Source of the DNA: Shigella phage KRT47
Sequence record: MN781580
Direction: 5' to 3' (one strand)
DNA: 64,000 bases
A model generated the notes under the pieces. It searched no databases and was not told where the DNA came from. It saw nothing but the letters and a program-made list of their open reading frames with translations. The stretch's first letter is position 1, and every line of letters begins with the position of its first letter. Made by a program: the position numbers and the translations under genes. Of the stretch, positions 16,049 to 38,883 are shown in pieces.

Positions 16049-16056
16049 TTTGTGTT

Positions 16057-16109
16057 CCTCATGTTATGTCAGTAAGACTACTGTAACACAACACGAGGGA
16101 CTTGTAAAC
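16057..16109 (-). repeat. 53-bp exact repeat, copy A (promoter-like GTTTAC plus SD-sequestering hairpin)
   Basis: Identical to 31923-31975; minus strand GTTTAC, 18 nt, TGtTACAGT, then nested inverted repeats CCTCGTGTT/AACATGAGG enclosing the GAGG before the ATG. Confidence 0.8.
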
Positions 16110-18166
16110 TACATCTTGAACTTTTTAGACATTCCGTTGATGTTAACCAAAGAAGCCAAGATTTGAGAAACTTCGTTTTCCTCTTCTTTTGATTCTTCTA
16201 CAAGGAATTGATTAAACCCAGCCATTGGACGAACTTCACCAGTTTCCATTAGATGATCGCCATCATATACCGATTCTTCTAATTGTTCAGAAGGAGGAAC
16301 GATTGTGCCTTCGATTAGATACTTATTATAAGCAGTTTCTTTCATCATGTACGTGCTAACTTTATTAATCTTCAGCAAAATTCCACGCGGTAGAATAACT
16401 TCAGCTTCTGATGGAAATCCTGATAAATGACCTGGAACGATAACTTTAATTCGCTCAGCTCCTTTTATTACCATACCTACGCTAGTTTCAGCATCTTCAT
16501 TCGCATAAGCAGAATGACTGCCCATATGCATTAAATCTTCAGCATCAACAGAACCTTCTCCTTCACCAGAAAATACTGCACCGGAATCATCTAGAGTCAT
16601 ATAGTTTTTACCATGCTCACCGAAGATATTTGGTTTAAGCGATGTTGATACGAAGTTCTTGAAATAAAACATTTTATTTTCAATATTATGACGTAAAGTT
16701 TTAAAGGTAACTTCTTGTCCACGATAAAGCGTAGTTCCTGGAGGAAGAACTGATCCTTTGGCAAAGGCAGAATCCAGCGTCTCGATGTGTTTAATAGCTC
16801 GTTCCATGTATTCTTCACGGGTAGAATCTGGTTTACCCAAGAGGAACGAGTTCATTTCAACATATGAATCTGCACAATAATCTTCAATTACATCAGACTC
16901 AGCCTGAGTTAATCCTTTTGGAGTTACTTCGGTGCTTGCATATTCATATGCCTGAGCAGCAGATTCATTAATCAATTTATAAATGCCATTCATGACAAAT
17001 TGAATAATAGCTACCTTTTCGTCTGGCGTGGCTTTAGAACCTTTAACTAAATCATTGATAATTTTCTTAATAACATCAAAGCTATTAGAAATATTAATGT
17101 CAGCGAGATCGCTCAAAATTTTATCGGTTTTATAATCAAAGAATTCTTTATTCTTTAAATATTCTTGAGAACCTTGATATGTTATATCGCTCTGCAGCTT
17201 GATAGATGGATCACGTAAACGTGCATGGGCCAATGCAATATGATTTCGGAAGCTTTCTAGTTCATAATCGTTAGATTTAAAACGAGAAGCACTTCTCATA
17301 CCACCGATAGCTCCTTTGCTGAAGTTTGAACCAATCTGGATAACGCCAGAGTTCATTGGTCCTTCTGCTTTATATACCGGAACTTTAGATTCAAACTCTT
17401 GATATTTCTTAGCGGCGAAGCTATCACCCTGAAGTGAAGCATCGACAGTAGAATATTGAGCTTGTGCTGCCAATCGACGACTAATTTTAGTTTTCTGAAT
17501 AACAGCTTGATCCGTGCGCTTATCATTTTCTAGAGCAATAGAAGCGGCAACAGCAACAGCTTTAGGAACAGCATTACCTGTTTTAACGTCTACATAAACA
17601 TCACCAACCTTTGATTCAACTTTTGTGAATAACTCAGTTGAAATAGGAGGTACACCTGGAATGTCTTCTAAATTAGCATTTTTACGATAAACCATAATAT
17701 ATGCATACTTTTTATCATAGTCCCAGATTTCCTTTAAAAGAACATATCGACCTGCTCCTTTAGTACGTACTAAACGGTCAGCAATAACTTGCATTTGACG
17801 AGCAGCGCCATTTGTTTTACTTTTTAGTACGCGGAATAGGCATGCGTCAATTTTATACTGTTTCATTGTTTGAAGAGCAGTATCAAAAACCGCATTAATG
17901 ACACCAATTGGATTTCCACCCAAGTTTTTAAGTTTAACTAATGATAGTTTCTCATTAACACCTATCATTACGATATGCATCATTTTATCGCCTGGCTTAA
18001 CGTTTTTATTTGTATCACCGCCAGAGGTGTATGTACAAAATCTAAATCCAGGAAGCACACTTTCTTCACCGGCTTGAATAGCAAAAATTTGAGGTATTTT
18101 ATGCTTAGGATTTAAGTTAACAACCGGCGCCGAAGCGCCGTCAAATAATTCTGTAATAAGTTCCAT
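16109..18166 (-). CDS. alt: Alt-family ADP-ribosyltransferase (capsid-packaged), paralog 1
   Basis: 685 aa; N-terminal MELITE motif (prohead protease site); R-S-E triad LYRGQ / FVSTSL / EAEVILPRG. Confidence 0.85.
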   Translation of the reverse strand: MELITELFDGASAPVVNLNPKHKIPQIFAIQAGEESVLPGFRFCTYTSGGDTNKNVKPGDKMMHIVMIGVNEKLSLVKLKNLGGNPIGVINAVFDTALQTMKQYKIDACLFRVLKSKTNGAARQMQVIADRLVRTKGAGRYVLLKEIWDYDKKYAYIMVYRKNANLEDIPGVPPISTELFTKVESKVGDVYVDVKTGNAVPKAVAVAASIALENDKRTDQAVIQKTKISRRLAAQAQYSTVDASLQGDSFAAKKYQEFESKVPVYKAEGPMNSGVIQIGSNFSKGAIGGMRSASRFKSNDYELESFRNHIALAHARLRDPSIKLQSDITYQGSQEYLKNKEFFDYKTDKILSDLADINISNSFDVIKKIINDLVKGSKATPDEKVAIIQFVMNGIYKLINESAAQAYEYASTEVTPKGLTQAESDVIEDYCADSYVEMNSFLLGKPDSTREEYMERAIKHIETLDSAFAKGSVLPPGTTLYRGQEVTFKTLRHNIENKMFYFKNFVSTSLKPNIFGEHGKNYMTLDDSGAVFSGEGEGSVDAEDLMHMGSHSAYANEDAETSVGMVIKGAERIKVIVPGHLSGFPSEAEVILPRGILLKINKVSTYMMKETAYNKYLIEGTIVPPSEQLEESVYDGDHLMETGEVRPMAGFNQFLVEESKEEENEVSQILASLVNINGMSKKFKM

Positions 18167-21964: not shown

Positions 21965-22230
21965 TGTTCATCCTTCAGAGTTTGATTTACAGCTCTATTA
22001 TAAATCAATTCATCATTAAGCTCAGTTAAAGACCTATGATATGTAGTTCTAACTTTATTTCCTTGCATCCAGTGCTTGATATAAATGAAACCTTGCTCTA
22101 CACATTTTTTAAAAATTCGTTCGTCTTTTTGAGCTCGGAATTCTGGATTGCATCTAAAGAATTGATTTACGTGACCGTAATCACGCGTAGTATTACCTTC
22201 ATTTTCATAAATAGTGTGAACGACAAACAT
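21961..22230 (-). CDS. Hypothetical protein (30.1 position)
   Basis: 89 aa ORF, translationally coupled. Confidence 0.5.
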   Translation of the reverse strand: MFVVHTIYENEGNTTRDYGHVNQFFRCNPEFRAQKDERIFKKCVEQGFIYIKHWMQGNKVRTTYHRSLTELNDELIYNRAVNQTLKDEQ

Positions 22231-23069
22231 TAGAATGCTCCTTGGAAAATATTATCACCACAAGTAGGTCTATTATACAAATACTCTATGCCACCAGGTT
22301 TAATATAGTTCCATGTCTGAAACGGATGTGTCTGATATGGATGATATAGATGATTATAAGGATTAAATCCAGGCGTTCTCCAGGTAGTGTTCCAACGAAA
22401 AGAATCGTTTTTAACCATCTTCTCAATTAAATCTTTTATAGCTTTTTCACTATCAAAACTTTCTTTATTTTCCTTTGGTGAAAAAAGCTTATTTTCTACA
22501 TCATTCCATGTATAAACCCGCTGAGCAGTTTTTGGAATATTGTCACGCTCTCCTCGAGCCATCCAATAAACAGGAACATTTAATATTTCACTCGCATGAT
22601 CGCAGTGGTGAGCAAGATCGTCAATATAACAAATTACGTTATATTTCTCTTTTGCCTTTTTGAATAACTCTTCTTTTGAAGAATCATGACCACACATCAT
22701 TACTTCTGAGAAGGCACCAGGAAAAAGAGCATTCAAATTAAATTGACGATTCAACAGAGCGTCAATAGAATCACCCAATGCTGTAACAGCTACAAAATTA
22801 TAATCTTCTTTTAATTTGTTAATTACACACAGGGCATCTTTATATGGAGACAAGTAACGAATAAAATCTGATCGATTGTATTTTTCAATTAGCTTGACAC
22901 CGAGTTCTTCATCACAATTAAAGAGTTTACCTGGAGAAATAAATTTCTCATCTTGGATCATTTTTAAAATATGTTCTAACGGAAGATTATATTTCTGAGC
23001 AAAATAAGGAAGACCTGATTGCCAGCTTAAACATACTCCATCAATATCAGTTAAAATAGTAGGCTTCAT
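22230..23069 (-). CDS. HAD-superfamily hydrolase-like protein (30.2 position)
   Basis: 279 aa; N-terminal DxDGV motif (ILTDIDGVCL) and later YIDDLAHH typical of HAD phosphatases. Confidence 0.55.
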   Translation of the reverse strand: MKPTILTDIDGVCLSWQSGLPYFAQKYNLPLEHILKMIQDEKFISPGKLFNCDEELGVKLIEKYNRSDFIRYLSPYKDALCVINKLKEDYNFVAVTALGDSIDALLNRQFNLNALFPGAFSEVMMCGHDSSKEELFKKAKEKYNVICYIDDLAHHCDHASEILNVPVYWMARGERDNIPKTAQRVYTWNDVENKLFSPKENKESFDSEKAIKDLIEKMVKNDSFRWNTTWRTPGFNPYNHLYHPYQTHPFQTWNYIKPGGIEYLYNRPTCGDNIFQGAF

Positions 23070-23530
23070 AGAGAGTCTCTTAATAGGTTTAACACATCAA
23101 TAAATTCAGCTTCGGTTAGTATTGTATCATCTTTTGTTAGACCACTAGCCATGCTGTGCTTCAAAACTTTTCCTTTCGAGGCTTGTAATGCATCGCGAAA
23201 GCCCTTGTTTTGGAACGCTGCTTCAAAATATGCATTTGTGTATAATTCTTTCCACGCTGGAGAGTATCTTGAAAACGGAACTCCAAGCCAGAAGAGGGTC
23301 CCACGGTCCTGAGCTCTAGCATAAGACCTTCCAGCTTGTTGGGCGGCAATCCCGGATAACCCAAATATACGTCTTTGCTGTTCAACATTTTTCACCTTAC
23401 ATCCTTGGAGGAATCCTTCGAGACCTCCAAATTGAATGCCATCCATAACGAAAGGCCATTGGGCGAAATTACTTAATGCACATGATGGCCATTTAAAATT
23501 GCTTCTTATCTCTAGTTCAGACATTTTCAA
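23066..23530 (-). CDS. NADAR / YbiA-like (DUF1768) domain protein (30.3 position)
   Basis: 154 aa; segment LSNFAQWPFVMDGIQFGGLEGFLQGCKV resembles YbiA FSNFAAWPIKVDGKTWPTSEHYFQAQKF. Confidence 0.55.
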   Translation of the reverse strand: MKMSELEIRSNFKWPSCALSNFAQWPFVMDGIQFGGLEGFLQGCKVKNVEQQRRIFGLSGIAAQQAGRSYARAQDRGTLFWLGVPFSRYSPAWKELYTNAYFEAAFQNKGFRDALQASKGKVLKHSMASGLTKDDTILTEAEFIDVLNLLRDSL

Positions 23531-23723
23531 TACTTATAATTTCAACATCAGCCCAATGACCATAGCAAGGAAGACGAAATTCAACTGGCCAGTTAGGGTC
23601 CTTTTCTAATATAATAGACTTAACTTGTGGTTCTTCATGTTCATCGGTATACGGACCTTTATACGTTACTTTATATGTGACTTTAATGTATTGAATTCCA
23701 AAAATCTTATTAATTATATTCAT
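23517..23723 (-). CDS. Hypothetical protein
   Basis: 68 aa ORF in operon-like packing. Confidence 0.4.
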   Translation of the reverse strand: MNIINKIFGIQYIKVTYKVTYKGPYTDEHEEPQVKSIILEKDPNWPVEFRLPCYGHWADVEIISIENV

Positions 23724-23917
23724 ACTAATTCCTTTAATCCGTAAATAGGAGATAATTCATCGCCCATACGAAGGTCTTCATTTCCATCTACCCAGGAAAC
23801 AATATAAGCCTCTTTTATTTGAATACCACTCCATTTAAATGGAGGTAGAACCTTAGAAATTAATCCAGGTATACCAACTCCCTTTAATTCAACAGTTTGA
23901 CCTAAAAAGAATTTCAT
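23720..23917 (-). CDS. Hypothetical protein
   Basis: 65 aa ORF, overlapping stop/start. Confidence 0.4.
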   Translation of the reverse strand: MKFFLGQTVELKGVGIPGLISKVLPPFKWSGIQIKEAYIVSWVDGNEDLRMGDELSPIYGLKELV

Positions 23918-24204
23918 TAGAACCTCATCTGAAAACCGTGCGATTTAACATTACCGCCGCCAATATCAGAAATATTAATTTCGCGCGCAATTGAAGGATC
24001 AATGTCAATTTCACGATTGAGTTTAGTGATAGCTAAAGTATCGCGCCCATTTACAGTACGGAACTCTAAAGGACATACTACATTAACGTAGTTTTTAATC
24101 GATTCACTGGTAGGTTGCAAATGAACAGGAAGGTCTTTAGGCGCCTTAGAGAAAACCACTTCACAGAAATTTTTGCGGGTATCAAAATAAGTAGTCATAA
24201 ACAT
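23917..24204 (-). CDS. Hypothetical protein
   Basis: 95 aa ORF. Confidence 0.45.
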   Translation of the reverse strand: MFMTTYFDTRKNFCEVVFSKAPKDLPVHLQPTSESIKNYVNVVCPLEFRTVNGRDTLAITKLNREIDIDPSIAREINISDIGGGNVKSHGFQMRF

Positions 24205-24245
24205 AGTATTTTCCTCAGTAAGGGGCCGAAGCCCCTCATTTTATT

Positions 24246-24623
24246 TTAAATATCAAATTCGTTAAGAACTACATCAAAGATTGCTTCAAGATGCTCAGGT
24301 TTAGCTCTATTACTCAGAATATGACGAATCCAAGTTTTAACCAGAAGCTTGCGATTAACGCCATTCCAGCAAGGATGAGTCCCTAAATCGCGTTGACGAA
24401 AATCATCATCCAGAGCGATTTTAAAAGAAGAACCTTCCATTGTGATTGAAACCGTGATGCCATTTTCAAATCGCATATAAACGTAGTTAGGAGTCATATA
24501 CTGTTCAATTTCGCATACTGATCCATTTTGATGTTTCCAGAGGCAAATAGTATCAATAGAACCTGCAATACCATTAGAAACATATTTACGTTCAAAGTTA
24601 ATGTAGTTCATTTTATTCTCCAA
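24246..24623 (-). CDS. Hypothetical protein
   Basis: 125 aa ORF with early-type promoter upstream. Confidence 0.5.
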   Translation of the reverse strand: MENKMNYINFERKYVSNGIAGSIDTICLWKHQNGSVCEIEQYMTPNYVYMRFENGITVSITMEGSSFKIALDDDFRQRDLGTHPCWNGVNRKLLVKTWIRHILSNRAKPEHLEAIFDVVLNEFDI

Positions 24624-24647
24624 GATGTTTAATTGCGGTACAGGTAT

Positions 24648-24676
24648 ATAATATCATATCCTGTACCAAAGTAAAC
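24648..24676 (-). promoter_or_regulatory. T4-type early promoter
   Basis: Minus strand GTTTAC, 17 nt, TGaTATTAT; -10 lies in loop of 8-bp inverted repeat GGTACAGG/CCTGTACC (24637-24667). Confidence 0.45.
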
Positions 24677-24678
24677 AA

Positions 24679-25011
24679 TTATTTTACTACTTTCCAATGC
24701 TGCATGTCAAGTTTACCAACTTTTTTCATCTTCTCAATTAAGCGTTCGGCACGTTGGCGAGCTGTAACATAATACCATTCACCTAATTCATTTTGTTCAA
24801 TTTTTCCAACGATTACTGTATTCAATTCATAAATCCAACCAGTAAAGAAATTATGAACTTGAATTGTAAAGGTGAAATCTGTTCCCATACCTTCTGTTGT
24901 TTCTACTTCAATAATATCACCTTCAACTGCCATTAAGAACCACATAGTTTCATCATATTTACCGTTGAAGCATTTAGTTTTAACTGCAGCGTTCAGATTA
25001 ATCGTTTTCAT
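24679..25011 (-). CDS. Hypothetical protein
   Basis: 110 aa ORF with early-type promoter upstream. Confidence 0.5.
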   Translation of the reverse strand: MKTINLNAAVKTKCFNGKYDETMWFLMAVEGDIIEVETTEGMGTDFTFTIQVHNFFTGWIYELNTVIVGKIEQNELGEWYYVTARQRAERLIEKMKKVGKLDMQHWKVVK

Positions 25012-25038
25012 TTTATTCTCCTTTGTTTGTGTAAGATA

Positions 25039-25068
25039 ATACTATCACAAAGGAACCATACTGTAAAC
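25039..25068 (-). promoter_or_regulatory. T4-type early promoter
   Basis: Minus strand GTTTAC, 18 nt, TGaTAGTAT; flanked by 6-bp inverted repeat TTTGTG/CACAAA. Confidence 0.45.
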
Positions 25069-25084
25069 AACTTTGTGCAATCTT

Positions 25085-25116
25085 TGGAAAATAAAAAAGG
25101 ACTCCCGAAGGAGTCC
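25085..25116 (-). terminator. Intrinsic terminator
   Basis: Hairpin AGGACTCCCGAAGGAGTCCT followed by U-run on minus strand. Confidence 0.55.
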
Positions 25117-25121
25117 TCAAC

Positions 25122-25298
25122 TTATGCTTTCTGCTTACCAAAACGAGAAGCATCATCTCGAAGAACCGCACGTGCTCGGCGCATGATCTTCTCAACAGTT
25201 TGATTGATACGAGAGTTCGACCCACGCTTGTAACCAGCGCGTTTAGAATCACCAACTTTCTTTTCAACTGCTTTCTTTGCTTTAGCTTGTTTTGCCAT
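25122..25298 (-). CDS. Small basic protein
   Basis: Likely start MAKQAKAKKAVEKK inside ORF-track 25122-25340; lysine/arginine rich. Confidence 0.4.
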   Translation of the reverse strand: MAKQAKAKKAVEKKVGDSKRAGYKRGSNSRINQTVEKIMRRARAVLRDDASRFGKQKA

Positions 25299-25586
25299 TA
25301 TAAATTCTCTTTTAAATGAAAATGCAGGACTTATTGGCATTGCCTGCGCAAGCCCTCAAGGGGTACTTAGGTTTTGAATATTTACCGACAGGATAACCAT
25401 AAACCTCGTCATCATACCACCAAGACTTACACAGATAACACTTTTCTGACGCATGATAGTAACATTCAAGAGGTACACCGTAAAACTGCCGGGGTCTTAA
25501 AACTATAATGATTCGCAAATCATTAATCAGACAGTTCGATGGCTCCTCGATTTTAGCTCACACTAAGGCAGTGAATCTCCAATAAA

Positions 25587-25835
25587 TTACTTCAGTGTTA
25601 CCACAAAGTGACGAACTGCTTTTCGTGCAGCAGAAGCCAGAGGCTTAGCATATTTAAGTTCATCTTTTTCCTGAAGCTCAGCAGCTAATGCAGTTTGAGC
25701 AGGATTCAGATGTTTGAAATAACGCAGGATTTCAAGAGCTTCGGCTTCAACATCAATAGATGCGCCATAGTTTTCGTGACCATTATTCCATGCGTTTCGT
25801 TGCAGTTCAAGAGCGTGTTGTAATTGTTTAATCAT
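25587..25835 (-). CDS. rIII: rIII lysis inhibition accessory protein
   Basis: 82 aa ORF at T4 rIII position immediately downstream of gene 31. Confidence 0.6.
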   Translation of the reverse strand: MIKQLQHALELQRNAWNNGHENYGASIDVEAEALEILRYFKHLNPAQTALAAELQEKDELKYAKPLASAARKAVRHFVVTLK

Positions 25836-25982
25836 TTAAAAATTCTCGTTAGAGATTAAAACTCGGTAGTCACGTTCTTCTGAATTTCATCTTCTTTCGA
25901 CAGATCTCTCAGTTGTAGACTACCACATAGAATTGTTCGGTTAACTTATTATTCCGACACCCAATTCATATTATTATTTATA

Positions 25983-26318
25983 TCACTTATAAAGACACGG
26001 AATAGCTTTATAGTGACAAGTAACGAATTTTTGTTTAATTTCTTTTGGCTGCTTAAGACCCAGAGCTACAAAAGGATGCGGAACGTTTCGAATTTGACCA
26101 ACTGGAAGAGAAGTCAAATCACCAACTTCGCAGAAACCTTCAGGAACATCAGGACCAACAGAGTGAACTACACACAGTTCAGGAACTTCACCTTGAACAC
26201 GTTTACCGATAATAAGTCCTGATTCTGTAACTTCTTCATCACCGGCTTGTGCAGGTTCAGAAACTAAAATAACATATTCACCGACAGCACGAATTGGTAG
26301 CTGTTGTACTTCAGACAT
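25983..26318 (-). CDS. 31: Co-chaperonin gp31 (GroES analogue)
   Basis: 111 aa; T4 gp31-like sequence [30 protein letters not shown]. Confidence 0.85.
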
Positions 26319-26374
26319 CGTTTTTCCTTTTTGTTAGCAGATGAATTAATAATAACAAATAATTCTTAAAGCAT

Positions 26375-26683
26375 TTATTTACCAATAAATTGAAGCAAAT
26401 GCTCAACTTTCATACCATTAACAGAAATCAATTTGTCAATAGAAAAACCTCGCCATGCACCAAGCTCAACATCAAATACTGGAATCATATCAGTAGATTC
26501 TTTCCGAGCAGATTCAGTCAATTTACCAGTTTGCATGGTTGGCATAAAGTCCGCATCACGAGTGCCTTTCATAGTACGAATAGTACCATCAGACTTTTCA
26601 AAAACCACGTTTGAAATACCCATGGACAATTTAGTTTTCAAAATTTCACGAATTGCTACTTTCTGTTCAGTTGTCAGTTTCAT
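26375..26683 (-). CDS. Hypothetical protein (31.1 position)
   Basis: 102 aa ORF. Confidence 0.5.
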   Translation of the reverse strand: MKLTTEQKVAIREILKTKLSMGISNVVFEKSDGTIRTMKGTRDADFMPTMQTGKLTESARKESTDMIPVFDVELGAWRGFSIDKLISVNGMKVEHLLQFIGK

Positions 26684-26920
26684 TTATTTACCTATTACAG
26701 TTTTAATATGGGTTGTTCCACGCTCTTTAAGAGTGGAAAGCAATTTTTGGCATTTTTCTAAATCAGATTTCCAACTATACGGTCTATCAATACTAGTCCA
26801 ATCAGTTTTATAATACTGTTTCCATTTAGAGAAAAAATATTTCTTATACTCTACAGCAAATGAGATGTTCTCGTTAGAATAAGAACTAATTGCTGTGAGC
26901 TTTACCAAACGAAATTTCAT
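26684..26920 (-). CDS. Hypothetical protein (31.2 position)
   Basis: 78 aa ORF. Confidence 0.45.
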   Translation of the reverse strand: MKFRLVKLTAISSYSNENISFAVEYKKYFFSKWKQYYKTDWTSIDRPYSWKSDLEKCQKLLSTLKERGTTHIKTVIGK

Positions 26921-27501
26921 TATTCACCACAGAATTCGTTGATATTTTCCCAGTTTAACTTATTCAAGTTTTTCTTAGGAACATTAAACACTTCAATACC
27001 TGCATTTCGCAGAATATCATCCCAGCCAGGTTTATTTTTATCGTATGTTTCGCAATAAACCAGCTTTTTAATACCAGATTGAGCTATCGCTTTTGCACAA
27101 TCTGGACAAGGAGAAAGTGTTACATACATAGTAGCACCTTCAATAGAAGAACCATTTCGTGCAGCAAACAAAATTGCATTTAGTTCAGCATGAATTTCAT
27201 TTTTAGACGACCATTCAGAGTGAGCGCTACGGTGTTCTTTCGCCAAGACAAAGCGATCAGTTGAACCAAATGATACGCATTCAGGCTTATGGCCTTGGAT
27301 GATAGTATGTTTAGGTTTATTCAGCAACCAACCTTGCTCAGCGGCATAATCACAACAGTTCACACCTCCTGCGGGTGAACCATTATACCCAGTAGAAATA
27401 ATACGTCCATTCTTTTCAATTACTGCTCCTACCTTCCAGGAGCAACATTTTGATTCTTGTGATACTAAATATGCAATTTGAAGTACTGTACTCGCTTTCA
27501 T
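26920..27501 (-). CDS. cd: dCMP deaminase
   Basis: 193 aa; zinc-binding deaminase motifs HAELNAI and PCPDC. Confidence 0.9.
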   Translation of the reverse strand: MKASTVLQIAYLVSQESKCCSWKVGAVIEKNGRIISTGYNGSPAGGVNCCDYAAEQGWLLNKPKHTIIQGHKPECVSFGSTDRFVLAKEHRSAHSEWSSKNEIHAELNAILFAARNGSSIEGATMYVTLSPCPDCAKAIAQSGIKKLVYCETYDKNKPGWDDILRNAGIEVFNVPKKNLNKLNWENINEFCGE

Positions 27502-27836
27502 TTCATAATCACCAGATAAGCAGATTTAGCAGTTTCAACACGATAAATTTCATGACGAAGTTTAGTTATACTTTTAATAACAGAACTAATTATATTCTGT
27601 CCGTCTTTAAAGCGGTTTTTCTTATCAATAAAAATTGCGCCAACCATCTTTTTGTGAAGCTCAACTGGATACTTCGTCACAATAATAGCATCATATACAG
27701 AAGGATGAATACTATTTACTAGAGTGTCATTCATTAAAGTTATTCTAATGAACTGTGCTGTTTCAGAGTCAAGCGCTCTATGATCGCCAGTATCATTTTC
27801 AAGACAATTATTAATTATATCAGTTAAATTCATCAT
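27498..27836 (-). CDS. Hypothetical protein (cd.1 position)
   Basis: 112 aa ORF. Confidence 0.45.
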   Translation of the reverse strand: MMNLTDIINNCLENDTGDHRALDSETAQFIRITLMNDTLVNSIHPSVYDAIIVTKYPVELHKKMVGAIFIDKKNRFKDGQNIISSVIKSITKLRHEIYRVETAKSAYLVIMK

Positions 27837-28069
27837 AGTACGCCATACACCCTTTGTGCTTCAACTAATCCATCAAAATCCAATTTAAGATGTGTTATTT
27901 GATCACCATCACCTGGATTCACAATTACTAATACTGAACGAGGAGTTTCGGTAATAACACGAACCGATGTTTCAGGAAATCGTTCAGAAACCTTATTTAC
28001 CAATTCCTGTGCAAATAGCTTAACTTTTTCTTGGAATTCTTTAACAGTAATCGGTTTTTCACTTAGCAT
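27833..28069 (-). CDS. Hypothetical protein
   Basis: 78 aa ORF. Confidence 0.45.
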   Translation of the reverse strand: MLSEKPITVKEFQEKVKLFAQELVNKVSERFPETSVRVITETPRSVLVIVNPGDGDQITHLKLDFDGLVEAQRVYGVL

Positions 28070-28605
28070 GTTGATCCCAGCTCCTTACTTTCAACGTTTT
28101 TAACTAATTTGATAGAAACTAATTCAGCATCTTGAGTAATCATTACCGGGCCTTCTTCATACTCTTCAAGATATTCTAGAGCTTTCTTTTTAGCTTCTTC
28201 CTTCGTATCAGTTTGAGCATAGATATAAAACATACAACCAGTAATACCTACTACTTTCCATTTAATTTCTTTATCAGTTTTAATTTCAAATTTACTGACA
28301 GAATCATCTTTTTGAACTTCTTCGAAAAAAGAATATTCTAACATATAAGCAATTGAAAATAACGGGCTAACTTTATAGGATTCGCCCATTACATCAACAG
28401 CTTTATACCAGCAGTCATCAATTTCGCGTTTAATGCTAATAACATTTTTCGCAGGATCTATTTTTACTTTAAATGAATTTTCCCCAATAAACTGAGCAAT
28501 TCGTTTATTAGCCCCGCAAGTTTCATTAAAAATATCTTTATATCCAGCTTTAAAGCGATAAACCTTATCTTCTTCAAACCATTCGCTCATTTTCAATTTC
28601 CTCAT
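28063..28605 (-). CDS. Hypothetical protein
   Basis: 180 aa ORF with early-type promoter upstream. Confidence 0.5.
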   Translation of the reverse strand: MRKLKMSEWFEEDKVYRFKAGYKDIFNETCGANKRIAQFIGENSFKVKIDPAKNVISIKREIDDCWYKAVDVMGESYKVSPLFSIAYMLEYSFFEEVQKDDSVSKFEIKTDKEIKWKVVGITGCMFYIYAQTDTKEEAKKKALEYLEEYEEGPVMITQDAELVSIKLVKNVESKELGSTC

Positions 28606-28620
28606 TTGTTTGGTAGAGCC

Positions 28621-28650
28621 ATAATATCACAACTCTACCGTAAAGTAAAC
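28621..28650 (-). promoter_or_regulatory. T4-type early promoter
   Basis: Minus strand GTTTAC, 18 nt, TGaTATTAT; -10 sits between 7-bp inverted repeat GGTAGAG/CTCTACC (28612-28639). Confidence 0.45.
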
Positions 28651-28652
28651 TA

Positions 28653-28928
28653 TTAAATCGCTTTGAATTCCGCAGTTTGAGATTCAAAGCGAATGTCGCC
28701 TTTGATAACTAACTCAGCATCAAGACCGAATACGACAATGATATGCGCGGAACCTGGATACAGCGTAATGGCAACAGAATCCACCTGGTCTGGAAGCAAA
28801 GTGTTTAATACATGAGTCACTTGAGCATGGATTCGAAGTTCGGCTGCGTTATCAAGCTTTTCAAACATATTATTAGCGATAATTTGACTAAACACTACTT
28901 CTACGATTTTAGAATAAGTCGGAAACAT
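28653..28928 (-). CDS. Hypothetical protein
   Basis: 91 aa ORF. Confidence 0.45.
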   Translation of the reverse strand: MFPTYSKIVEVVFSQIIANNMFEKLDNAAELRIHAQVTHVLNTLLPDQVDSVAITLYPGSAHIIVVFGLDAELVIKGDIRFESQTAEFKAI

Positions 28929-28930
28929 AT

Positions 28931-29131
28931 TTACCTCACATAATTTTCTTCAAGCCAATCAATAACATCCAAAGCGTTATCAAAAGTTGAACCATCTACT
29001 TTGTCTTCTGTTTCATAATCAAGAACATCTAAGCCTACTCTTCCGTCAACAATAGGCCATAAACAAAATAGATATTTCTTTTCTTTTTCAATTTTATCAC
29101 AAAGACGATAAATCTTTTCTATGTTATTCAT
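28931..29131 (-). CDS. Hypothetical protein
   Basis: 66 aa ORF. Confidence 0.4.
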   Translation of the reverse strand: MNNIEKIYRLCDKIEKEKKYLFCLWPIVDGRVGLDVLDYETEDKVDGSTFDNALDVIDWLEENYVR

Positions 29132-29320
29132 AAGTTTTCCATGGTAAAGGCAGTTTAGTTTTCTTTACTGTTAGTTCAACATCAGGATTCTTTTCTCTCA
29201 ATTTAAGACATTCCTCCCAAGCTCTGATTTCACTAGTGAATACACAAAATTGCCCATTACTAGTACCGACTAAACCACTATTTACAATAATAATAGCCCA
29301 AGTTTCATGATGCCACGCCA

Positions 29321-29321
<1 letters not shown>
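29124..29321 (-). CDS. Hypothetical protein
   Basis: 65 aa ORF. Confidence 0.4.
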
Positions 29322-30546
<1,225 letters not shown>

Positions 30547-30549
30547 TTA

Positions 30550-30780
30550 TTATTTCTCAACCAATGATTGAATATAATCATGCAGGTCTTTAGATGCTTT
30601 ACCCCACTTATTTTGGTATTCATTTTTAAGATTAGCCCGAGATTGAGCTAATAAAACATCATTAGTTGGAGGTAAAGATTCTAACCGTTGAATCTGGCGT
30701 CCATAAATCATTGCAGCCATCTCGGATTCATAAATCAATCCTTTGAGATGTTCAAATTGATGCCATGAAATCATTTGCAT
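30550..30780 (-). CDS. Hypothetical protein
   Basis: 76 aa ORF. Confidence 0.4.
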   Translation of the reverse strand: MQMISWHQFEHLKGLIYESEMAAMIYGRQIQRLESLPPTNDVLLAQSRANLKNEYQNKWGKASKDLHDYIQSLVEK

Positions 30781-31070
30781 TTATCCTCTTTTAACTCTTG
30801 GCGATAATAACATATCATAGTTTTCTGATCATGTATATATCGTTTTACATCATTAAGCCAAATACGAAATTCCTGAGAATCTTCAAATGGCATACCGACC
30901 CAAGCTTTACCATCAATAACTTTAACTTGCCAGGATAGTTTAGCTTCATCATATGACTTTATTTGTACTGGCCAATTAGGATGAACTGTTTCTTTCTTTA
31001 CTTCTAGAGGCTTTGTCGAACAACCAACTAGAAGACCAATAGATAATATTACTGCTGATAGTTTAATCAT
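30771..31070 (-). CDS. pseT.2: Outer-membrane spanin (o-spanin lipoprotein)
   Basis: 99 aa; signal peptide with lipobox LLVGC; immediately downstream of and overlapping i-spanin candidate. Confidence 0.65.
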   Translation of the reverse strand: MIKLSAVILSIGLLVGCSTKPLEVKKETVHPNWPVQIKSYDEAKLSWQVKVIDGKAWVGMPFEDSQEFRIWLNDVKRYIHDQKTMICYYRQELKEDKCK

Positions 31071-31420
31071 TTAGAAAGGTCCTGGATGTCTTCTGCGAAC
31101 TTGTTGAAGGAGTTGTTGATTTGTTTTTCAACCAATCCTGGCTTATGAGCCACCACATCCGCCTTCTTTGCGTCTTTGCGCAGTTTTTCATTTTCACGCT
31201 CAATAGCAGCAATTGCCTCACGATTTTTATTATTCATCGCATCAATATAATTATACTGAATTCGCAAATTATTTAATGCTAAAGCGTTTTCATTGGCCGT
31301 TTTTGTAATTTCTACGACAGACGTTTCTAATCTTTCAATTTTATTTTTTAAAATTAAAGAAGTTCCGCCCAATGCAATTACAATTAATAGCAAGCCTGCT
31401 GTCGTATTACTTAATTGCAT
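31067..31420 (-). CDS. pseT.3: Inner-membrane spanin (i-spanin)
   Basis: 117 aa; N-terminal transmembrane helix followed by coiled-coil-like periplasmic region. Confidence 0.65.
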   Translation of the reverse strand: MQLSNTTAGLLLIVIALGGTSLILKNKIERLETSVVEITKTANENALALNNLRIQYNYIDAMNNKNREAIAAIERENEKLRKDAKKADVVAHKPGLVEKQINNSFNKFAEDIQDLSK

Positions 31421-31917
31421 AAAGTTTTAATAACCTCTATAATATCGTCTTGAGAAAGACCGTTAATTAAAATATGATGTTCAGCCGGAGATTTAGAAAT
31501 TTTAAAGCATGCCTCAACATCTTCTGCCATATCCGATGCGCTACGATTTGGATTACTAATTCCAAGACGATGTTTTCCCGTTAAAGGATTAACGATGATA
31601 TAGCATTTACAGTTGTTAATATGAACATTAGGTTGAGTCTGATTAATGAACACATCACAATCATATTTCGCAAGCTGATTTTCTAAAAAGACTTTCATCT
31701 CCTCAACCGCATCAGGAAGCATATCACGGGCTTGCTCAAGACGACGATTTCGATATTCTTTAATGGTCGTTTTCCGCTTGACTTGCTTAGCTAAATCTTT
31801 CTTAAGATCGGTGATATATCCAACTCGACGATTTCCTTTAAATACAGAAATCCCATCTGTAGTATCACCGTATGCTTCAACGACCATTTCAGTAGTAATA
31901 AGCTGTAAATCCATCAT
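31411..31917 (-). CDS. alc: Alc-like transcription termination factor (host transcription shutoff)
   Basis: 168 aa ORF at T4 alc position between rnlA and pseT.3. Confidence 0.55.
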   Translation of the reverse strand: MMDLQLITTEMVVEAYGDTTDGISVFKGNRRVGYITDLKKDLAKQVKRKTTIKEYRNRRLEQARDMLPDAVEEMKVFLENQLAKYDCDVFINQTQPNVHINNCKCYIIVNPLTGKHRLGISNPNRSASDMAEDVEACFKISKSPAEHHILINGLSQDDIIEVIKTLCN

Positions 31918-31922
31918 AAAGT

Positions 31923-31975
31923 CCTCATGTTATGTCAGTAAGACTACTGTAACACAACACGAGGGACTTGTAAAC
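31923..31975 (-). repeat. 53-bp exact repeat, copy B
   Basis: Identical to 16057-16109; lies between rnlA stop and alc start. Confidence 0.8.
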
Positions 31976-31978
31976 AGC

Positions 31979-33566
<1,588 letters not shown>

Positions 33567-33590
33567 AATAAAATGGGCCTTGCGGCCCAC
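33567..33590 (-). terminator. Hairpin terminator/attenuator between nrdB and denA
   Basis: GGGCCTTGCGGCCC hairpin, then U-rich tract on minus strand that includes the denA ATG. Confidence 0.45.
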
Positions 33591-33593
33591 TCC

Positions 33594-34763
33594 TTAAAAA
33601 TATTTTTTAAAACTCATCATAACTTTATCATCAACATCATTATCAATCTGTGCTACAAGGTAAGATGACAGTTCTACTTCTTGCGGCGCGGATTGAACAT
33701 TATCAGAATTAAGGTATTCACGAATCCAAGGATATGGATGTTTAACCGGAGCATCGGTAATTGGACATGGAAGACCACACTGTTTCATACGAGATACAGT
33801 TAAGTAATCAATAAAGCTCCACATGCTATTTGTATTTAATCCAGGAACATCGCCATCTTTAAATAAATGAACTGCCCAATCTTTTTCTTGGCGGTTAACT
33901 TCCATGAAAATATCAACTGCTTCTTGTTCACACTCTTGAGCAATTTTAACCCATTCATCGCCATCAGTACCGGATTGAAGTTGACGAATAATATATTGGG
34001 TGCCTTTAAGGTGAAGCTGCTCATCACGTGCAATGAACTTCATAATCTTGGCATTACCTTCCATGATTTCCATGTTCTTATGGAAGTTAAAGGTACATGC
34101 GAAAGATACATAAAAACGAATAGCTTCCAATGCGTTGATTACATGCAGGCAGAGGTAAAGAGATTTCATTAGTGCTCGTTTAGTACATTCAACAACTTTG
34201 CCTAACTCTTCTTTACGAAATCCTTCTGATAAAATTCCTTCATAATCTTCAACCGCATTCTGATATTCACGAGTCTTAACTAGAACGTCATCATAATAAC
34301 GACCAATAGATTCAGCGCGTTTCATGATAGCTTTATCTAATACAATCTCATCAAATACCTTTGATGGATCAGTATAAAGATTTCGCATAATATGAGTATA
34401 TGAACGGCTGTGAATAGTTTCGCTAAAAGTCCATGTAGCAACCCATGTATCAAGACTTGGGTCTGAAATTAACGACATAAGTACAGCAGACGGCGCACGA
34501 CCCTGAATGCTATCCAAAAGTGATTGATACTTCAGGTTATTAGTAAAAATATCTTGCTGATATTGAGGAAGCTTGTTAAATTGTGCAGCATCCATCATCA
34601 AGTTTACTTCTTCAGGACGCCAGAAAAATGACAACTGTTTTTCGGTTAAATCTTCAAAAACTTTATGGCGTTGAATATCATAACGCGCAATACCAAGACC
34701 TGAACCGAAGAACATAGGTTCTTTTAAAACATCAACTGGATTTGTATTAAAAACTGTGCTCAT
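33594..34763 (-). CDS. nrdB: Ribonucleotide reductase small subunit (uninterrupted, no intron)
   Basis: 389 aa continuous ORF, class I RNR beta sequence. Confidence 0.9.
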   Translation of the reverse strand: MSTVFNTNPVDVLKEPMFFGSGLGIARYDIQRHKVFEDLTEKQLSFFWRPEEVNLMMDAAQFNKLPQYQQDIFTNNLKYQSLLDSIQGRAPSAVLMSLISDPSLDTWVATWTFSETIHSRSYTHIMRNLYTDPSKVFDEIVLDKAIMKRAESIGRYYDDVLVKTREYQNAVEDYEGILSEGFRKEELGKVVECTKRALMKSLYLCLHVINALEAIRFYVSFACTFNFHKNMEIMEGNAKIMKFIARDEQLHLKGTQYIIRQLQSGTDGDEWVKIAQECEQEAVDIFMEVNRQEKDWAVHLFKDGDVPGLNTNSMWSFIDYLTVSRMKQCGLPCPITDAPVKHPYPWIREYLNSDNVQSAPQEVELSSYLVAQIDNDVDDKVMMSFKKYF

Positions 34764-34814
34764 AAATTTTCCGCTTAGTTAATAGATAGTGACTCGTCCG
34801 TGAGTCAAATTATA

Positions 34815-37079
34815 TCATAATTTACAGGATGAACAATCTTCAGCTTTTGGAGTTTCTATTTCATAATCATCAGTACCAGAACCGTCACGGGTATTATGAT
34901 AATAGAAATTTTTTCCGCCAAAATACCAAAAATACAAAAGGTCATCAATCATTATTGACATTGGAACCTTTCCTTTTGGAAAAATCTGCGGGTCATAATA
35001 TGTATTTGCTGAAGCTGATTGACACACCCATTTAAGCATAATAGCTACTTGCGTAAGATAAGGTTTATTGCCTTTCTTAGCTAATTTCCACGTATAATCA
35101 TAGAGGTCTATGTTATGCTCAATATTGGGCACGACTTGATTAAAGGAACCCTCTTTTGATTCTTTAACAGAGACTGGTCCACGTGGAGGCTCGATACCGT
35201 TTGTACTGTTAGAAACTTGGGAAGATGACTCACATGGCATAAGTGCTGATAATGTGCTATTACGGATGCCAAAGAGCTTAAGGTCTTCCCGCAGCGACGA
35301 CCAGTCACAAACGTATTTTGGAGCTGCGATTTGGTCAATCTTTTTATTGTACCAGTCGATAGGTAATTCGCCTCGAGACCAACGAGTGTCTGAATAATAT
35401 TCGCAAGGTCCTTTTTCTTTGGCGAGCTTAATGGATGCTTTAATGAGTCCATACTGTAATCTCTCAAATAGTTCATGTGTTAAATCGTTAGCATCTTCAT
35501 AAGAAGCAAAATTACTTGCCAGCCAAGCTGCATAGTTAGTAACACCTACACCAAGATTTCGACGCTTTTTAGCTTTTTCTGCTTCAGGAACTGGATATCC
35601 TTGGTAATCCAAAAGATTATCAAGAGCACGAACTTGGACTTCTGCCAATTCATTAATTTTATCTTGGTCTTGCCAATCAAAGTTATCTAACACAAATGCA
35701 GATAACGTACACAATCCAATTTCAGCATCAGGACTATTCACATCATTTGTTGGAATAGCAATTTCACAGCACAAGTTGCTCTGACGAATAGGTGCCTTTT
35801 CACGAATAAACGGAGTATAGTTATTCGTATTATCTATGAACTGTACATAAATCCTTGCTGTTCCTGAGCGTTCAGTCATGAGCAATTCAAACAGTTCACG
35901 GGCTTTAATGCGCTTTTTACGAATATTAGGGTCTTTTTCTGCGGCTTCGTATAATTCACGGAAACGGTCTTGGTCTTTAAAATAAGAATAATAAAGTTCG
36001 CCACCCATTTCATGCGGACTGAACAAAGTAATGTAATCATTCTTTCCGAATCGTTCCATCATTAGGTCATTCAGTTGAACGCCATAATCCATATGACGGA
36101 TACGGTTTTCTTCTACACCTTTGTTATTTTTCAAAACGAGAAGATTTTCAACTTCCAAATGCCAAATAGGATAATAAGCAGTAGCAGCGCCGCCACGAAT
36201 TCCACCCTGTGAACATGATTTAACAGCAGTCTGAAAATGTTTCCAAAAAGGAATAACACCAGTATGGCGTACTTCACCTGTGCCAATCTTAGAACCTTCG
36301 GCACGAATCATACCAACGTTAATACCAATTCCAGCGCGTTTGGAGATATATTCAACAATTGAAGCGGAAGCCTTATTGATAGACTTCAGCGAATCACCTG
36401 CCTCAATAACAACGCATGAACTAAACTGTCGAGTCGGAGTACGACAGCCAGCCATAATAGGAGTTGGCAATGAAATCTGTCGAGTAGATACTGCTTCATA
36501 AAAACGAATAACATGTTTTAATCTATCAACAGGTTCATCTTGATGCAATGCCATTCCAATAGTCATAAATGCAAACTGCGGAGTTTCATAAATTTGACCA
36601 GTGGTTTTATCTTTAACGAGATATTTTTCTTTTAATTGCATCGCCCCGGAATAAGTAAATTCCATATCCCGCTCGTGCTTAATTTTTGATTCTAAAAATG
36701 TAATTTCTTCTGCTGAATATTTTGACAGCAGTTCAGGGTCATATTTACCTTCATTTACACAGTAAGAAATATGGTCAATAAATGAACGTGGTTCATATTG
36801 TCCGTAAACATGCTTACGAAGAGCAAACATTAAACAGCGAGCGGCTACGTATTGATAATCAGGCTCTTCAACTGAAATAGAATTCGCAGCAGCCTTAATT
36901 ACAATGGTTTGAATGTCATCAGTGGTCATTCCATCACGGAGATATGATTTAATATTTTCATATAATTCATAAGGATCTACAGATGTTCCTTCAGCTGCCC
37001 AGGATAAAACTTTAATAATTTTTTGCGGGTCAAAGCTCTGAGAAACACCACTACTTTTGATAACATTAATTAATTGCAT
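34815..37079 (-). CDS. nrdA: Ribonucleotide reductase large subunit
   Basis: 754 aa; class Ia RNR alpha. Confidence 0.9.
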   Translation of the reverse strand: MQLINVIKSSGVSQSFDPQKIIKVLSWAAEGTSVDPYELYENIKSYLRDGMTTDDIQTIVIKAAANSISVEEPDYQYVAARCLMFALRKHVYGQYEPRSFIDHISYCVNEGKYDPELLSKYSAEEITFLESKIKHERDMEFTYSGAMQLKEKYLVKDKTTGQIYETPQFAFMTIGMALHQDEPVDRLKHVIRFYEAVSTRQISLPTPIMAGCRTPTRQFSSCVVIEAGDSLKSINKASASIVEYISKRAGIGINVGMIRAEGSKIGTGEVRHTGVIPFWKHFQTAVKSCSQGGIRGGAATAYYPIWHLEVENLLVLKNNKGVEENRIRHMDYGVQLNDLMMERFGKNDYITLFSPHEMGGELYYSYFKDQDRFRELYEAAEKDPNIRKKRIKARELFELLMTERSGTARIYVQFIDNTNNYTPFIREKAPIRQSNLCCEIAIPTNDVNSPDAEIGLCTLSAFVLDNFDWQDQDKINELAEVQVRALDNLLDYQGYPVPEAEKAKKRRNLGVGVTNYAAWLASNFASYEDANDLTHELFERLQYGLIKASIKLAKEKGPCEYYSDTRWSRGELPIDWYNKKIDQIAAPKYVCDWSSLREDLKLFGIRNSTLSALMPCESSSQVSNSTNGIEPPRGPVSVKESKEGSFNQVVPNIEHNIDLYDYTWKLAKKGNKPYLTQVAIMLKWVCQSASANTYYDPQIFPKGKVPMSIMIDDLLYFWYFGGKNFYYHNTRDGSGTDDYEIETPKAEDCSSCKL

Positions 37080-37396
37080 AAGTCCTCAACTTGAAAATCG
37101 TCTTTAAACAATCGGTTAACTATATGAGCTATTATATCACCATGACACGGCTTTGGTTTACATGTGCATCCTAGCCTCATTCCACGTAAAGGCTCTAAAT
37201 GTGCTTTAGTTATTTCTCCGGATTTAATTCGACGTATAAAATCTTTTTTGAATAATTCAATGGCAGCCTCCCGGCTGCCAGCATCTTTACCGACGTAATT
37301 TCCCCAAAATGTACCACGGTGAATATTAACATCAAAGTCGGATTTATATTTATTCACTACCCGGCATAGACGGCCCGCGTGGTAATAATTCGTCAT
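37070..37396 (-). CDS. Hypothetical Cys/His-containing protein
   Basis: 108 aa ORF with [11 protein letters not shown] motif. Confidence 0.45.
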
Positions 37397-37613
37397 ATTG
37401 TTTTTCCGTTAAAACAGTAATATCATAATAACAATCAGAAGAAGTTTTAACTGTAGAAATTTTATTATCAAAATACTCACGAGTCATTTTATGAGTATAA
37501 TATTTTTTGCCATAAATGATAATAGGCTGTTCTGGTCCTGGAACTTCTAACTCGCTTGGATTAGGAAGTGTAAAAAGAACGACACCAGAAGTATCCTTAA
37601 ATCGTAAAATCAT
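37350..37613 (-). CDS. Hypothetical protein
   Basis: 87 aa ORF overlapping td stop. Confidence 0.4.
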
Positions 37614-38470
37614 ATTGCCATTTTCCCTTTAATTGCTGGATGCGATTCATAATTTTCAAGGATAAAATCTTTCGGTTTCATGTATTCAGTTAACCAGTAA
37701 AGCTGTGTTTCGGTGTCACAATTTCCAAACTCTATAGGCCAATCAATTTTAAGTTCACACAGTTCTTTAGGCTCACGACGTAAAATTTCTTTACATTGCG
37801 CAGTATGATTCATATAGATGTGAGTATTACCACCAGAAAATATCAAATCTCCTGGGATAAGATTACACATCTTAGCCACAATATGCGTCAAGGCAGCGTA
37901 CGAGGCAATGTTGAATGGCAAGCCCAAGAAAACATCTACACTTCTTTGGTACCATTGTAAATCAAGATAACCATTACGCACATTAAACTGATAGAACATA
38001 TGACAGGGCGGTAATGCCATTTGATTGATTTCAGCTGGATTCCATGCTGAAACGATTTGACGTCGATCAGTTGGTAATTTTTTAATACGATCAATAGTTT
38101 CAACTAATTGATCCACACCACCGAAATCACGCCATTGTTTACCATATATAGGACCAAGTTCACCACTATGATATCCTAGGTCTTTAGCTTGGTTTTCATA
38201 ATTGTCATCCCAGATAGTTTTACCTTGAATAAGACTACCGTGAGTAAGAAGACGTAAATCATTAACATTGGTAGAACCGGAAATAAACCATAAAAGCTCA
38301 GCAATGCATGCATTCCAGGCGAGCTTCTTAGTTGTTACTGCAGGAAAACCTTTAGTTAAATCCCAGCGTAATTTAGTACCGAACAGAGCAATTGTTCCTA
38401 TGCCTGTTCGGTCATCGGTTTCATAGCCATTTTCAAAAATGTCTTTAATTAAATCTTGGTATTGTTTCAT
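37610..38470 (-). CDS. td: Thymidylate synthase (uninterrupted, no intron)
   Basis: 286 aa continuous; N-terminus [23 protein letters not shown]; active-site ALPPCH. Confidence 0.9.
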
Positions 38471-38515
38471 TTAGTACCTTATATAAATTATAATACATTT
38501 TATGAAGCTGAATAA

Positions 38516-38875: not shown

Positions 38876-38883
38876 GTGTTATT

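Follow-up and report, generated by a model that had tools for sequence, protein, structure and literature searches.

The early promoters of bacteriophage T4 are the textbook model of very strong promoters. According to a study by Repoila et al. from 1994, elements of about 70 bp reportedly flank the internal-protein genes of T-even phages, and each of them holds a T4 early promoter that is overlapped by an inverted repeat. Hairpins serve phages and bacteria in other ways as well. In T7 early mRNA, stable intercistronic hairpins processed by RNase III define or protect 3' ends, as do the REP-type 3' stabilisers, and the virion RNA polymerase of N4, a phage RNA polymerase, uses hairpin promoters with stems of 5-7 bp and 3-nt loops that require supercoiling and SSB.

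Hinton's 2010 review describes early promoters as carrying extra conserved information of unexplained role (PMC2988021). Dyads at early promoters are mentioned neither there nor in the review by Uzan and Miller (PMC2988021, PMC3014915). For late genes the situation is different: in T4 e, soc, 49 and I-TevI, the late promoter lies within a translationally inhibitory hairpin, in its 5' arm or loop, while the 3' arm covers the Shine-Dalgarno sequence or the AUG, and the long upstream-initiated RNA is silent and the local RNA open (PMC3014915). In a second arrangement, termed PeSL (promoter-early stem-loop; Arbiol 2010, Comeau 2014), a stem-loop sits just upstream of an early promoter and acts as a terminator (PMC2839356, PMC4122927). 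Finally, in the account of Arbiol 2010, the elements of Repoila et al. are built on T4 early promoters, have AT-rich stem-loops that vary in size, concern two internal-protein loci and were interpreted as recombination homology (PMC2839356).

Here we analyzed a stretch of 64,000 nt from Shigella phage KRT47 (MN781580), referred to below as the window. An initial annotation had singled out four early promoters in it, each with the -10 hexamer in the loop of a perfect inverted repeat. We conclude that this dyad pattern is real and selected, and only partly new. Already known are a local glimpse of it at the internal-protein loci and, for late promoters, the logic of the dyads that we designate class B below. 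The enrichment at early promoters genome-wide, the fixed geometry of class A dyads and the RNA-level evidence were not found described in the literature, in which Repoila et al. 1994 was known to us through Arbiol 2010.

Results

Inverted repeats are enriched at early promoters

The whole window is collinear with positions 105,959-168,903 of T4 (AF158101) at about 96% identity in the alignment, which identifies it as Tequatrovirus, and bases 24000-29000 are 95-99% identical to hundreds of Tequatrovirus genomes. Alignment gaps relative to T4 mark the absence of segD, of the nrdB intron with I-TevIII and of mobE (window 563-621, 34096-34819 and 37615-38900), and the td intron with I-TevI is apparently absent too. 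No Rfam match to a group I intron was obtained in the window, and no Rfam family matched anywhere in it at the gathering threshold.

The early genes of the window lie on the minus strand. The pattern GTTTAC-N16-18-TAnnnT has 13 exact matches, all on this strand, compared to 2.6 expected; 12 of them were kept as credible early promoters based on an A/T-rich upstream region and a Shine-Dalgarno sequence and ATG that follow. Promoters are named by the position of the G of GTTTAC. All four sites of the initial annotation conform to the T4-type early (sigma-70) promoter pattern GTTTAC-N17/18-TAnnnT, often with TGn, and all four inverted repeats are present, each bracketing the -10 of such a minus-strand promoter. 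By alignment to T4 and its annotation, promoter 24676 lies upstream of 30.7, 25068 upstream of 30.8, 28650 in the cd.3/cd.2 gap and 40365 upstream of frd.1; the T4 record names the homologue of 28650 as early promoter Pe133295. The coordinates given at the outset were right for three of the repeats, while the TTTGTG arm starts at 25026 and not, 2 nt off, at 25024.

At each promoter, we determined the longest perfect repeat whose two arms lie on opposite sides of the -10, both within 25 nt of it. At the 12 window promoters, its length was 4, 9, 4, 4, 4, 3, 7, 4, 7, 8, 8 and 4 bp. Repeats of at least 7 bp surround the -10 of 5 of the 12, compared to 0.036 per site with shuffled flanks and 0.043 per site with random anchors. 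The initial annotation had proposed a comparison with shuffled controls; just 1 in 2000 shuffled window sets reached 5 of 12, which excludes a chance expectation.

The same search was applied to 37 T4 promoters and 37 promoters of RB69 (Mosigvirus), called by criteria blind to repeats. Repeats of at least 6, 7, 8 and 9 bp were present at 20, 13, 8 and 5 of the T4 promoters, compared to 5.9, 1.2, 0.4 and 0.17 expected when downstream flanks were swapped among promoters (observed counts in 0 of 3000 permutations), and at 14, 9, 7 and 6 of the RB69 promoters, compared to 6.8, 2.1, 0.64 and 0.31 expected, counts that are not fully independent because the promoters of the two phages are homologous and several are paralogous cassettes. 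Since the flank swap keeps all position-specific consensus, the complementarity is particular to each promoter. Complementarity built into the consensus itself was considered and rejected; it is weak about -12/-11 (permuted pairing of 0.27-0.50 per position), and the swap still abolishes long repeats.

Among control sites in T4, repeats of at least 7 bp were found at 4.7% of generic TATAAT sites (n = 297) and at 0 of 34 MotA-type sites. They bracket 6 of 32 late TATAAATA sites, in agreement with the known hairpins that hold late promoters. About 14-15% of control sites have a repeat of 6 bp, so that TTTGTG/CACAAA would be unremarkable by itself. Roughly one third of strong early promoters lie within a promoter-specific inverted repeat; about two thirds of equally consensus promoters in T4 and RB69 are without any dyad. 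The strongest T4 dyads, of 10, 14 and 8 bp, are found at ipI, ipII and ipIII. Compared to this genome-wide property, the elements of Repoila et al., as rendered by Arbiol 2010, concern two loci and have no RNA-level reading (PMC2839356).

Dyads fall into two classes

Based on their anatomy, we distinguish two classes of dyad, for which folding energies below refer to read-through RNA folded from the -35 to the ATG. Class A consists of tight dyads with loops of 8-18 nt and arms in the spacer and the discriminator, and is represented in the window by 24676, 28650 and 40365. Class A has one dominant dyad axis at -12/-11. At 13 of 74 promoters, a run of at least 5 pairs starts precisely 4 nt before the -10 on one side and right after it on the other, and the 10-nt loop of these 13 is composed of TGn and the -10. 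The arms fill positions in spacer and discriminator that RNA polymerase does not read, which is enough to explain the fixed axis.

The class A dyad of the 30.7 early promoter (24637-24667, minus strand) has the plus-strand arms GGTACAGG (24637-24644) and CCTGTACC (24660-24667). Its 15-nt loop contains the -10 TATTAT (24648-24653), the -35 GTTTAC is located at 24671-24676, and the right arm covers about -3 to +5; the read-through RNA folds with -20.1 kcal/mol (z = -5.2). At the frd.1 early promoter (40329-40357, minus strand), TAGGGTA (40329-40335) and TACCCTA (40351-40357) are part of a 14-pair RNA hairpin in which GUAGUG of the spacer is paired to the -10 UACUAU (40336-40341), with -19.2 kcal/mol (z = -3.7). 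The dyad in the cd.3/cd.2 gap (28612-28639, minus strand) pairs GGTAGAG (28612-28618) with CTCTACC (28633-28639) around the -10 TATTAT (28621-28626) and forms 12 pairs as RNA, including U·G, with -15.6 kcal/mol (z = -3.2). For the corresponding loop, the T4 record (AF158101, 133300-133313, equivalent to window 28620-28632) notes that 14 bp are the "inverted complement of previously reported sequence". This stretch is nearly exactly the loop between the two arms, so that the old discrepancy amounts to a flip of the loop between them, as either a sequencing artefact at the hairpin or a real inversion variant.

Class A hairpins are located directly 3' of the stop codon of the upstream cistron. 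In the window, 19-26 nt separate the end of the right arm from the ATG (12-43 nt across T4), and the arm thus lies about 8-13 nt 5' of an unpaired Shine-Dalgarno sequence, which reads GGAGAAUAAAAUG at 30.7 and frd.1. The initiation region GGAGAATAAAATG is identical at 24598-24611, 24998-25011 and 40297-40310, that is, in the genes of three of the four promoters. We take GGAGAAUAAAAUG and GGAGAATAAAATG to resemble the preferred context of the RegB endoribonuclease; if so, cutting by RegB would produce an upstream fragment with the class A hairpin close to its 3' end.

Class B consists of anti-Shine-Dalgarno spacers with loops of 20-35 nt. The right arms follow the -10 at a distance of 13-25 nt, and the 3' arm covers the ribosome-binding site, overlapping the Shine-Dalgarno sequence or start codon at 25068, 61447, 31975 and 16109 and at none of the three class A promoters of the window. 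At 8 of 73 promoters, at least 7 nt of the spacer are complementary to the translation initiation region of the same promoter's gene, compared to 0.9 (shuffled) to 1.8 (swapped) expected. At the 30.8 early promoter (25019-25054, minus strand; -10 TAGTAT at 25039-25044), TCCTTTGT in the spacer pairs over 8 bp with ACAAAGGA, which overlies the Shine-Dalgarno sequence AAGGAG. The repeat that had placed this promoter among the first four, TTTGTG (25026-25031)/CACAAA (25046-25051), exists as a weaker alternative nested in this dyad and using the same spacer, and the site is better explained by the TCCTTTGT/ACAAAGGA pairing. Its fold is the weakest of the seven sites (-12.5 kcal/mol, z = -1.6).

Three class B dyads, one perfect (61447) and two with long imperfect stems (31975 and 16109), add to the four noted first. 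At promoter 61447 (dyad at 61393-61437, minus strand; -35 at 61442-61447), the spacer sequence CTGTTCCTC pairs with GAGGAACAG over the Shine-Dalgarno sequence, with 9 bp perfect and 15 pairs as RNA (-23.2 kcal/mol, z = -4.7). The imperfect dyad of the alc promoter 31975 (31919-31969, minus strand) pairs AAGTCCCTCGTGTTGTG with AACATGAGGACTT, so that both the Shine-Dalgarno sequence and the start-codon region are occluded (-28.8 kcal/mol, z = -5.7). Upstream of alt.-3, promoter 16109 has a paralogous copy of the alc promoter and hairpin cassette (16054-16101, minus strand), which again occludes the Shine-Dalgarno sequence (-25.9 kcal/mol, z = -3.9).

The class B dyads of 30.8, 61447, alc and alt.-3 have the same anatomy as the hairpins of e, soc, 49 and I-TevI. 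The difference is that the internal promoter is an early sigma-70 promoter here and that class A leaves the ribosome-binding site untouched. With an early internal promoter, both types of transcript would be present simultaneously, so that they would be discriminated by their origin and not by time.

Stems in related phages

The promoters of relatives, which the initial annotation had proposed for comparison, support the dyads at three loci and lack that of P30.8 when diverged. Relatives were found by single-protein queries, and all have at least 71% amino-acid identity. At P30.7, a single arm position was changed among 14 IMG/VR relatives, in one relative, by a C-to-T change that creates a G·U pair. 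Of the 9 loop positions outside the hexamer, by contrast, 5 are variable, as is nearly the entire downstream flank. The stem at the cd.2 site reads GGTAGAGTT/GGCTCTACC in the window, GGTAGAGTT/AGCTCTACC in T4 and GGTGGAGTT/AACTCTACC in RB69, and all differences are wobble-compatible exchanges between U-A and U·G or between A-U and G·U. At Pfrd.1, five different stems occur in different phages: TAGGGTA/TACCCTA, AGGCTAT/ATAGCCT, AAGGCTAT/ATAGCCTT, GATAGGGCT/AGCCCTATC and AUGGGGCU/GGUCCCAU. Judging from these stems, the sequence turns over while the structure is retained. Because the frd.1 dyad axis shifts (t-2, t-2.5, t+0.5), the pairs are not positionally homologous, and we list the stems without a column-wise covariation analysis. 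The P30.8 dyad is absent in the diverged relatives L013 and L016-18, and the feature is thus common but not obligatory.

That each promoter has its own stem sequence at a conserved position had been apparent from the first four sites. This is borne out by the flank swaps, which destroy the arms, and by the frd.1 orthologues with their different complementary stems. Varied, promoter-specific stems at a conserved position exclude a shared protein-binding sequence and favour a structural role.

Predicted read-through RNAs fold and presumed local leaders do not

The read-through RNAs of the seven dyad sites fold with -12.5 to -28.8 kcal/mol and z-scores of -3.2 to -5.7 in six of the seven. G·U pairs lengthen the stems in RNA. 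The -10 lies in the loop, as initially annotated, with respect to the perfect arms; in RNA with G·U pairs, the hexamer is partly paired at 40365, 28650 and 24676. At 61953, 58309, 55844 and 44391, there was no hairpin across the -10 and the fold of the read-through RNA was not significant. The fold at 41091 is significant (z = -3.5) and consists of two hairpins, one in the spacer and one in the leader, neither of which brackets the -10. The former corresponds to a repeat, ACCACA-aggac-TGTGGT, that promoters 41062-41091 and 61924-61953 (minus strand) carry entirely within the spacer and that pairs the TGn/extended -10 region. The latter is an extra 8-bp hairpin, AUCAGCA(A)-uac-UGCUGAU, located 3' of the presumed start and retained in the promoter's own transcript.

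The 5' arm lies within the spacer at every site, which puts the +1 expected from sigma-70 geometry 3' of the 5' arm, between the arms or inside them. A local start at such a position would yield an mRNA without the 5' arm and hence an open leader. When the same leaders were folded from the presumed start (+1, set 7 nt beyond the -10), they gave -0.3 to -4.2 kcal/mol and z-scores of +0.8 to +1.7 and are less structured than their shuffles.

We also compared both strands. In T4, sense RNA had a mean of -14.05 kcal/mol and antisense RNA one of -10.88 kcal/mol, and sense was the more stable in 28 vs. 9 cases (p = 1.8e-4); the means for random segments were -9.5 (sense) and -8.9 kcal/mol (antisense). 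In RB69, sense was the more stable in 23 vs. 14 cases (p = 0.048; z-score difference, p = 2.5e-4). Among pairs adjoining perfect stems, G·U occurs on the sense strand in 17 of 68, compared to 14% expected, and A·C, which equals G·U on the antisense strand, occurs at expectation. Total G·U pairs in the minimum-energy folds of RB69 showed no strand difference (66 vs. 65). These asymmetries are modest but consistent.

Terminators and promoter cassettes

An intrinsic terminator scan of 22001-42000 listed none of the four initially noted dyads, and none of these has a U-tract after the 3' arm, window tails being gcaattaaac and aaacaaatgagg. We therefore rejected the idea that the dyads are intrinsic terminators, which they cannot be without U-tracts. 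The scan found no terminator upstream of 24676, 28650 or 40365, and among the four sites one is present solely at 25068. The stop codon of 30.8 abuts the -35 of P30.7 with no terminator upstream, and read-through is therefore expected there. Strong terminators precede 25068 (25097-25118, minus strand, GAGGACTCC-TTCG-GGAGTCCTT followed by a T-run, a PeSL-like arrangement just upstream of the 30.8 promoter) and 41091 (41123-41141), and together with P30.8 and P41091 they form classic PeSLs. Like PeSLs, the dyads are composites of a stem-loop and an early promoter in intergenic gaps of variable regions, and they may likewise be associated with indels and cassette exchange. In contrast to PeSLs, their arms interleave with the core promoter and bracket the -10, and they have no U-tract. 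Identity of the dyads with PeSL stem-loops was rejected, since the PeSL loop lies upstream and terminates and the scan puts such terminators elsewhere. The two arrangements tend to be mutually exclusive: in T4 and RB69 combined, a terminator lies just upstream of 10 promoters, 1 of which carries a dyad of at least 7 bp, compared to 21 of the remaining 64, a difference that has the fitting direction but is not significant (hand-estimated Fisher p of about 0.13-0.14).

Near-identical promoter cassettes are present at unrelated loci. One pair is located at 16050-16115 (alt.-3) and 31915-31981 (alc), the other at 41040-41097 (an ORF of the frd region) and 61900-61959 (an ORF of the ndd region); the cassette at 61385-61451 is 97% identical to the T4 nrdC.8 promoter (53881-53947) and not to the syntenic T4 position. 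The sequence of these copies suggests cassette exchange or gene conversion. Directly downstream of promoter 28650, the window has an insertion of 528 bp where T4 has 9 bp. An ORF, MSEWFEEDKVYRF... (28063-28605, minus strand; start at 28590, 175 codons), separates the Pe133295-type promoter from cd.2 here, and its stop overlaps the start of cd.2 (ATGCTAA); this ORF is found in the IMG/VR relatives L036-L039 and neither in L040 nor in T4.

Such traffic raises the possibility that the repeats are a non-adaptive record of cassette history, in which PeSL-like recombination shuffled the cassettes and templated mutation perfected quasi-palindromes. The promoter and leader cassettes shared by 31975/16109 and 61953/41091, the resemblance of the 61447 cassette to the nrdC.8 promoter, the gene inserted immediately 3' of 28650, a repeated family in RB69 (...TAGGACT-N10-AGTCCTATC...) and the PeSL-mediated shuffling on record (PMC2839356, PMC4122927) would all fit this explanation. 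It leaves unexplained, however, the complementarity within and difference between promoters seen in the swap controls, the conservation of the 30.7 arms while adjacent non-coding bases diverge, the location of many right arms on the Shine-Dalgarno sequence and the preference for the sense strand. We consider it unlikely, although it fares best among the alternatives.

The structure probably resides in RNA

The structural role favoured by the initial annotation stands, but the implied location in promoter DNA is not supported: the DNA hairpins are weak, the sense strand folds better, the changes in relatives are G·U-compatible and the hairpin would be limited to read-through RNA. The structure therefore probably sits in RNA. 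A role at the DNA level would require that a hairpin or cruciform is extruded, or that the dyad facilitates melting in some other way, so that sigma-70 meets a single-stranded -10; this would add to the exceptional strength of early promoters. The axis at -12/-11 indeed falls on the upstream boundary of the transcription bubble, the loop corresponds exactly to the extended -10, and the enrichment is particular to early (and late) promoters and missing at MotA-type sites. As single-stranded DNA hairpins, however, the four first-noted dyads reach merely -5 to -8.4 kcal/mol with spacers of 10-15 nt, and from cruciform energetics such hairpins are far too weak for extrusion from duplex. The axis is trivially expected if the sole unconstrained promoter positions are used. 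Neither the sense-strand bias nor wobble-type substitutions are expected for DNA pairing, class B right arms are placed on the ribosome-binding site well downstream of the -10, and the dyad-free majority of promoters is equally consensus. The sense bias, the G·U-compatible substitutions and the turnover of stems in orthologues favour, as far as sequence comparison goes, pairing in RNA, and we regard a contribution of the DNA form as rather improbable.

A more specific DNA-level variant, for which the position of the axis at the bubble edge likewise speaks, seems quite improbable to us. On freshly injected, torsionally stressed DNA the dyads might extrude or breathe, offer the extended -10 to sigma-70 in single-stranded form and thereby make some early promoters structure-dependent for the host polymerase, as at N4 promoters, which likewise have key promoter bases in the loop of a DNA hairpin and a variable stem sequence. 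Here, however, the loops are 8-35 nt, transcription is by the sigma-70 holoenzyme of the host, and our evidence speaks for pairing in RNA. If this reading were true, a subset of T4 early promoters would be structure-dependent promoters for the host polymerase.

Dyad symmetry centred on a core promoter is typical of operators, and the repeats could in principle be sites for a dimeric DNA-binding regulator, such as a factor that shuts off early promoters. Some stems also hold TGTGA...TCACA, as in the T4 ipII and ipIII promoters. Arm sequence, arm length (6-14 bp) and spacing (8-35 nt) nevertheless vary between promoters and orthologues without a common half-site, in line with the earlier view that no single protein site is shared, and a regulator site appears very improbable to us. 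The ipII and ipIII dyads at T4 65799 and 66498, the longest with 14 and 8 bp, read AATTGTGA-N8-TCACAATT; their TGTGA...TCACA resembles a pair of CRP half-sites at 8-bp instead of 6-bp spacing, a likeness that probably results by coincidence from the TGTGA extended -10. In AT-rich sequence, complementarity by chance would suffice for the 6-bp repeats at control sites, but as an explanation of the dyads it can practically be dismissed, given that repeats of at least 7, 8 and 9 bp are about 10-fold or more above each of the nulls, which were shuffled sequence, random anchors, swapped flanks and generic TATAAT sites.

Discussion

Non-random occurrence, promoter specificity, geometry, the contrast between read-through and local folds and the strand bias are the observations that an explanation of the dyads has to accommodate. 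We propose, with moderate confidence, that the dyads are selected RNA-level elements placed in unconstrained positions of early promoters, where the hairpin forms solely in read-through RNA and marks it as such. One arm would be provided by the spacer and the other by the discriminator and initial transcribed region, or by the downstream ribosome-binding site. Read-through RNA, begun at an early promoter further upstream, would contain both arms and fold, whereas a transcript started locally, presumably about 7 nt after the -10, would not.

For class B (30.8, 61447, alc and alt.-3), the hairpin would hide the Shine-Dalgarno sequence in read-through RNA. By analogy with the late genes, translation would then proceed mainly from the transcript of the gene's own promoter. 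For class A (30.7, the cd.2 site and frd.1), the hairpin may act as an intercistronic decay barrier, a processing element or an insulator of polycistronic RNA, a suggestion that we make with low confidence. The T7 RNase III hairpins and REP-type stabilisers may provide a functional model for it, with the difference that the T4-type hairpins have shorter stems, of 7-14 bp perfect, and share their sequence with a promoter. Our literature search returned no paper on the mapping of T4 transcript ends.

If the dyads are RNA switches, part of the extra conserved information of early promoters would not be meant for RNA polymerase, and the conserved spacer and discriminator sequence of some promoters would be accounted for. 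There would be a second code laid over the promoter, by which local and read-through copies of a cistron are handled differently in translation, decay or processing. The principle described for e, soc, 49 and I-TevI, so far confined to a few late genes, would then apply to a third of the early promoters as well. The dyads would further be relevant to annotation and to the engineering of T4-like therapeutic phages, in which promoter cassettes are swapped.
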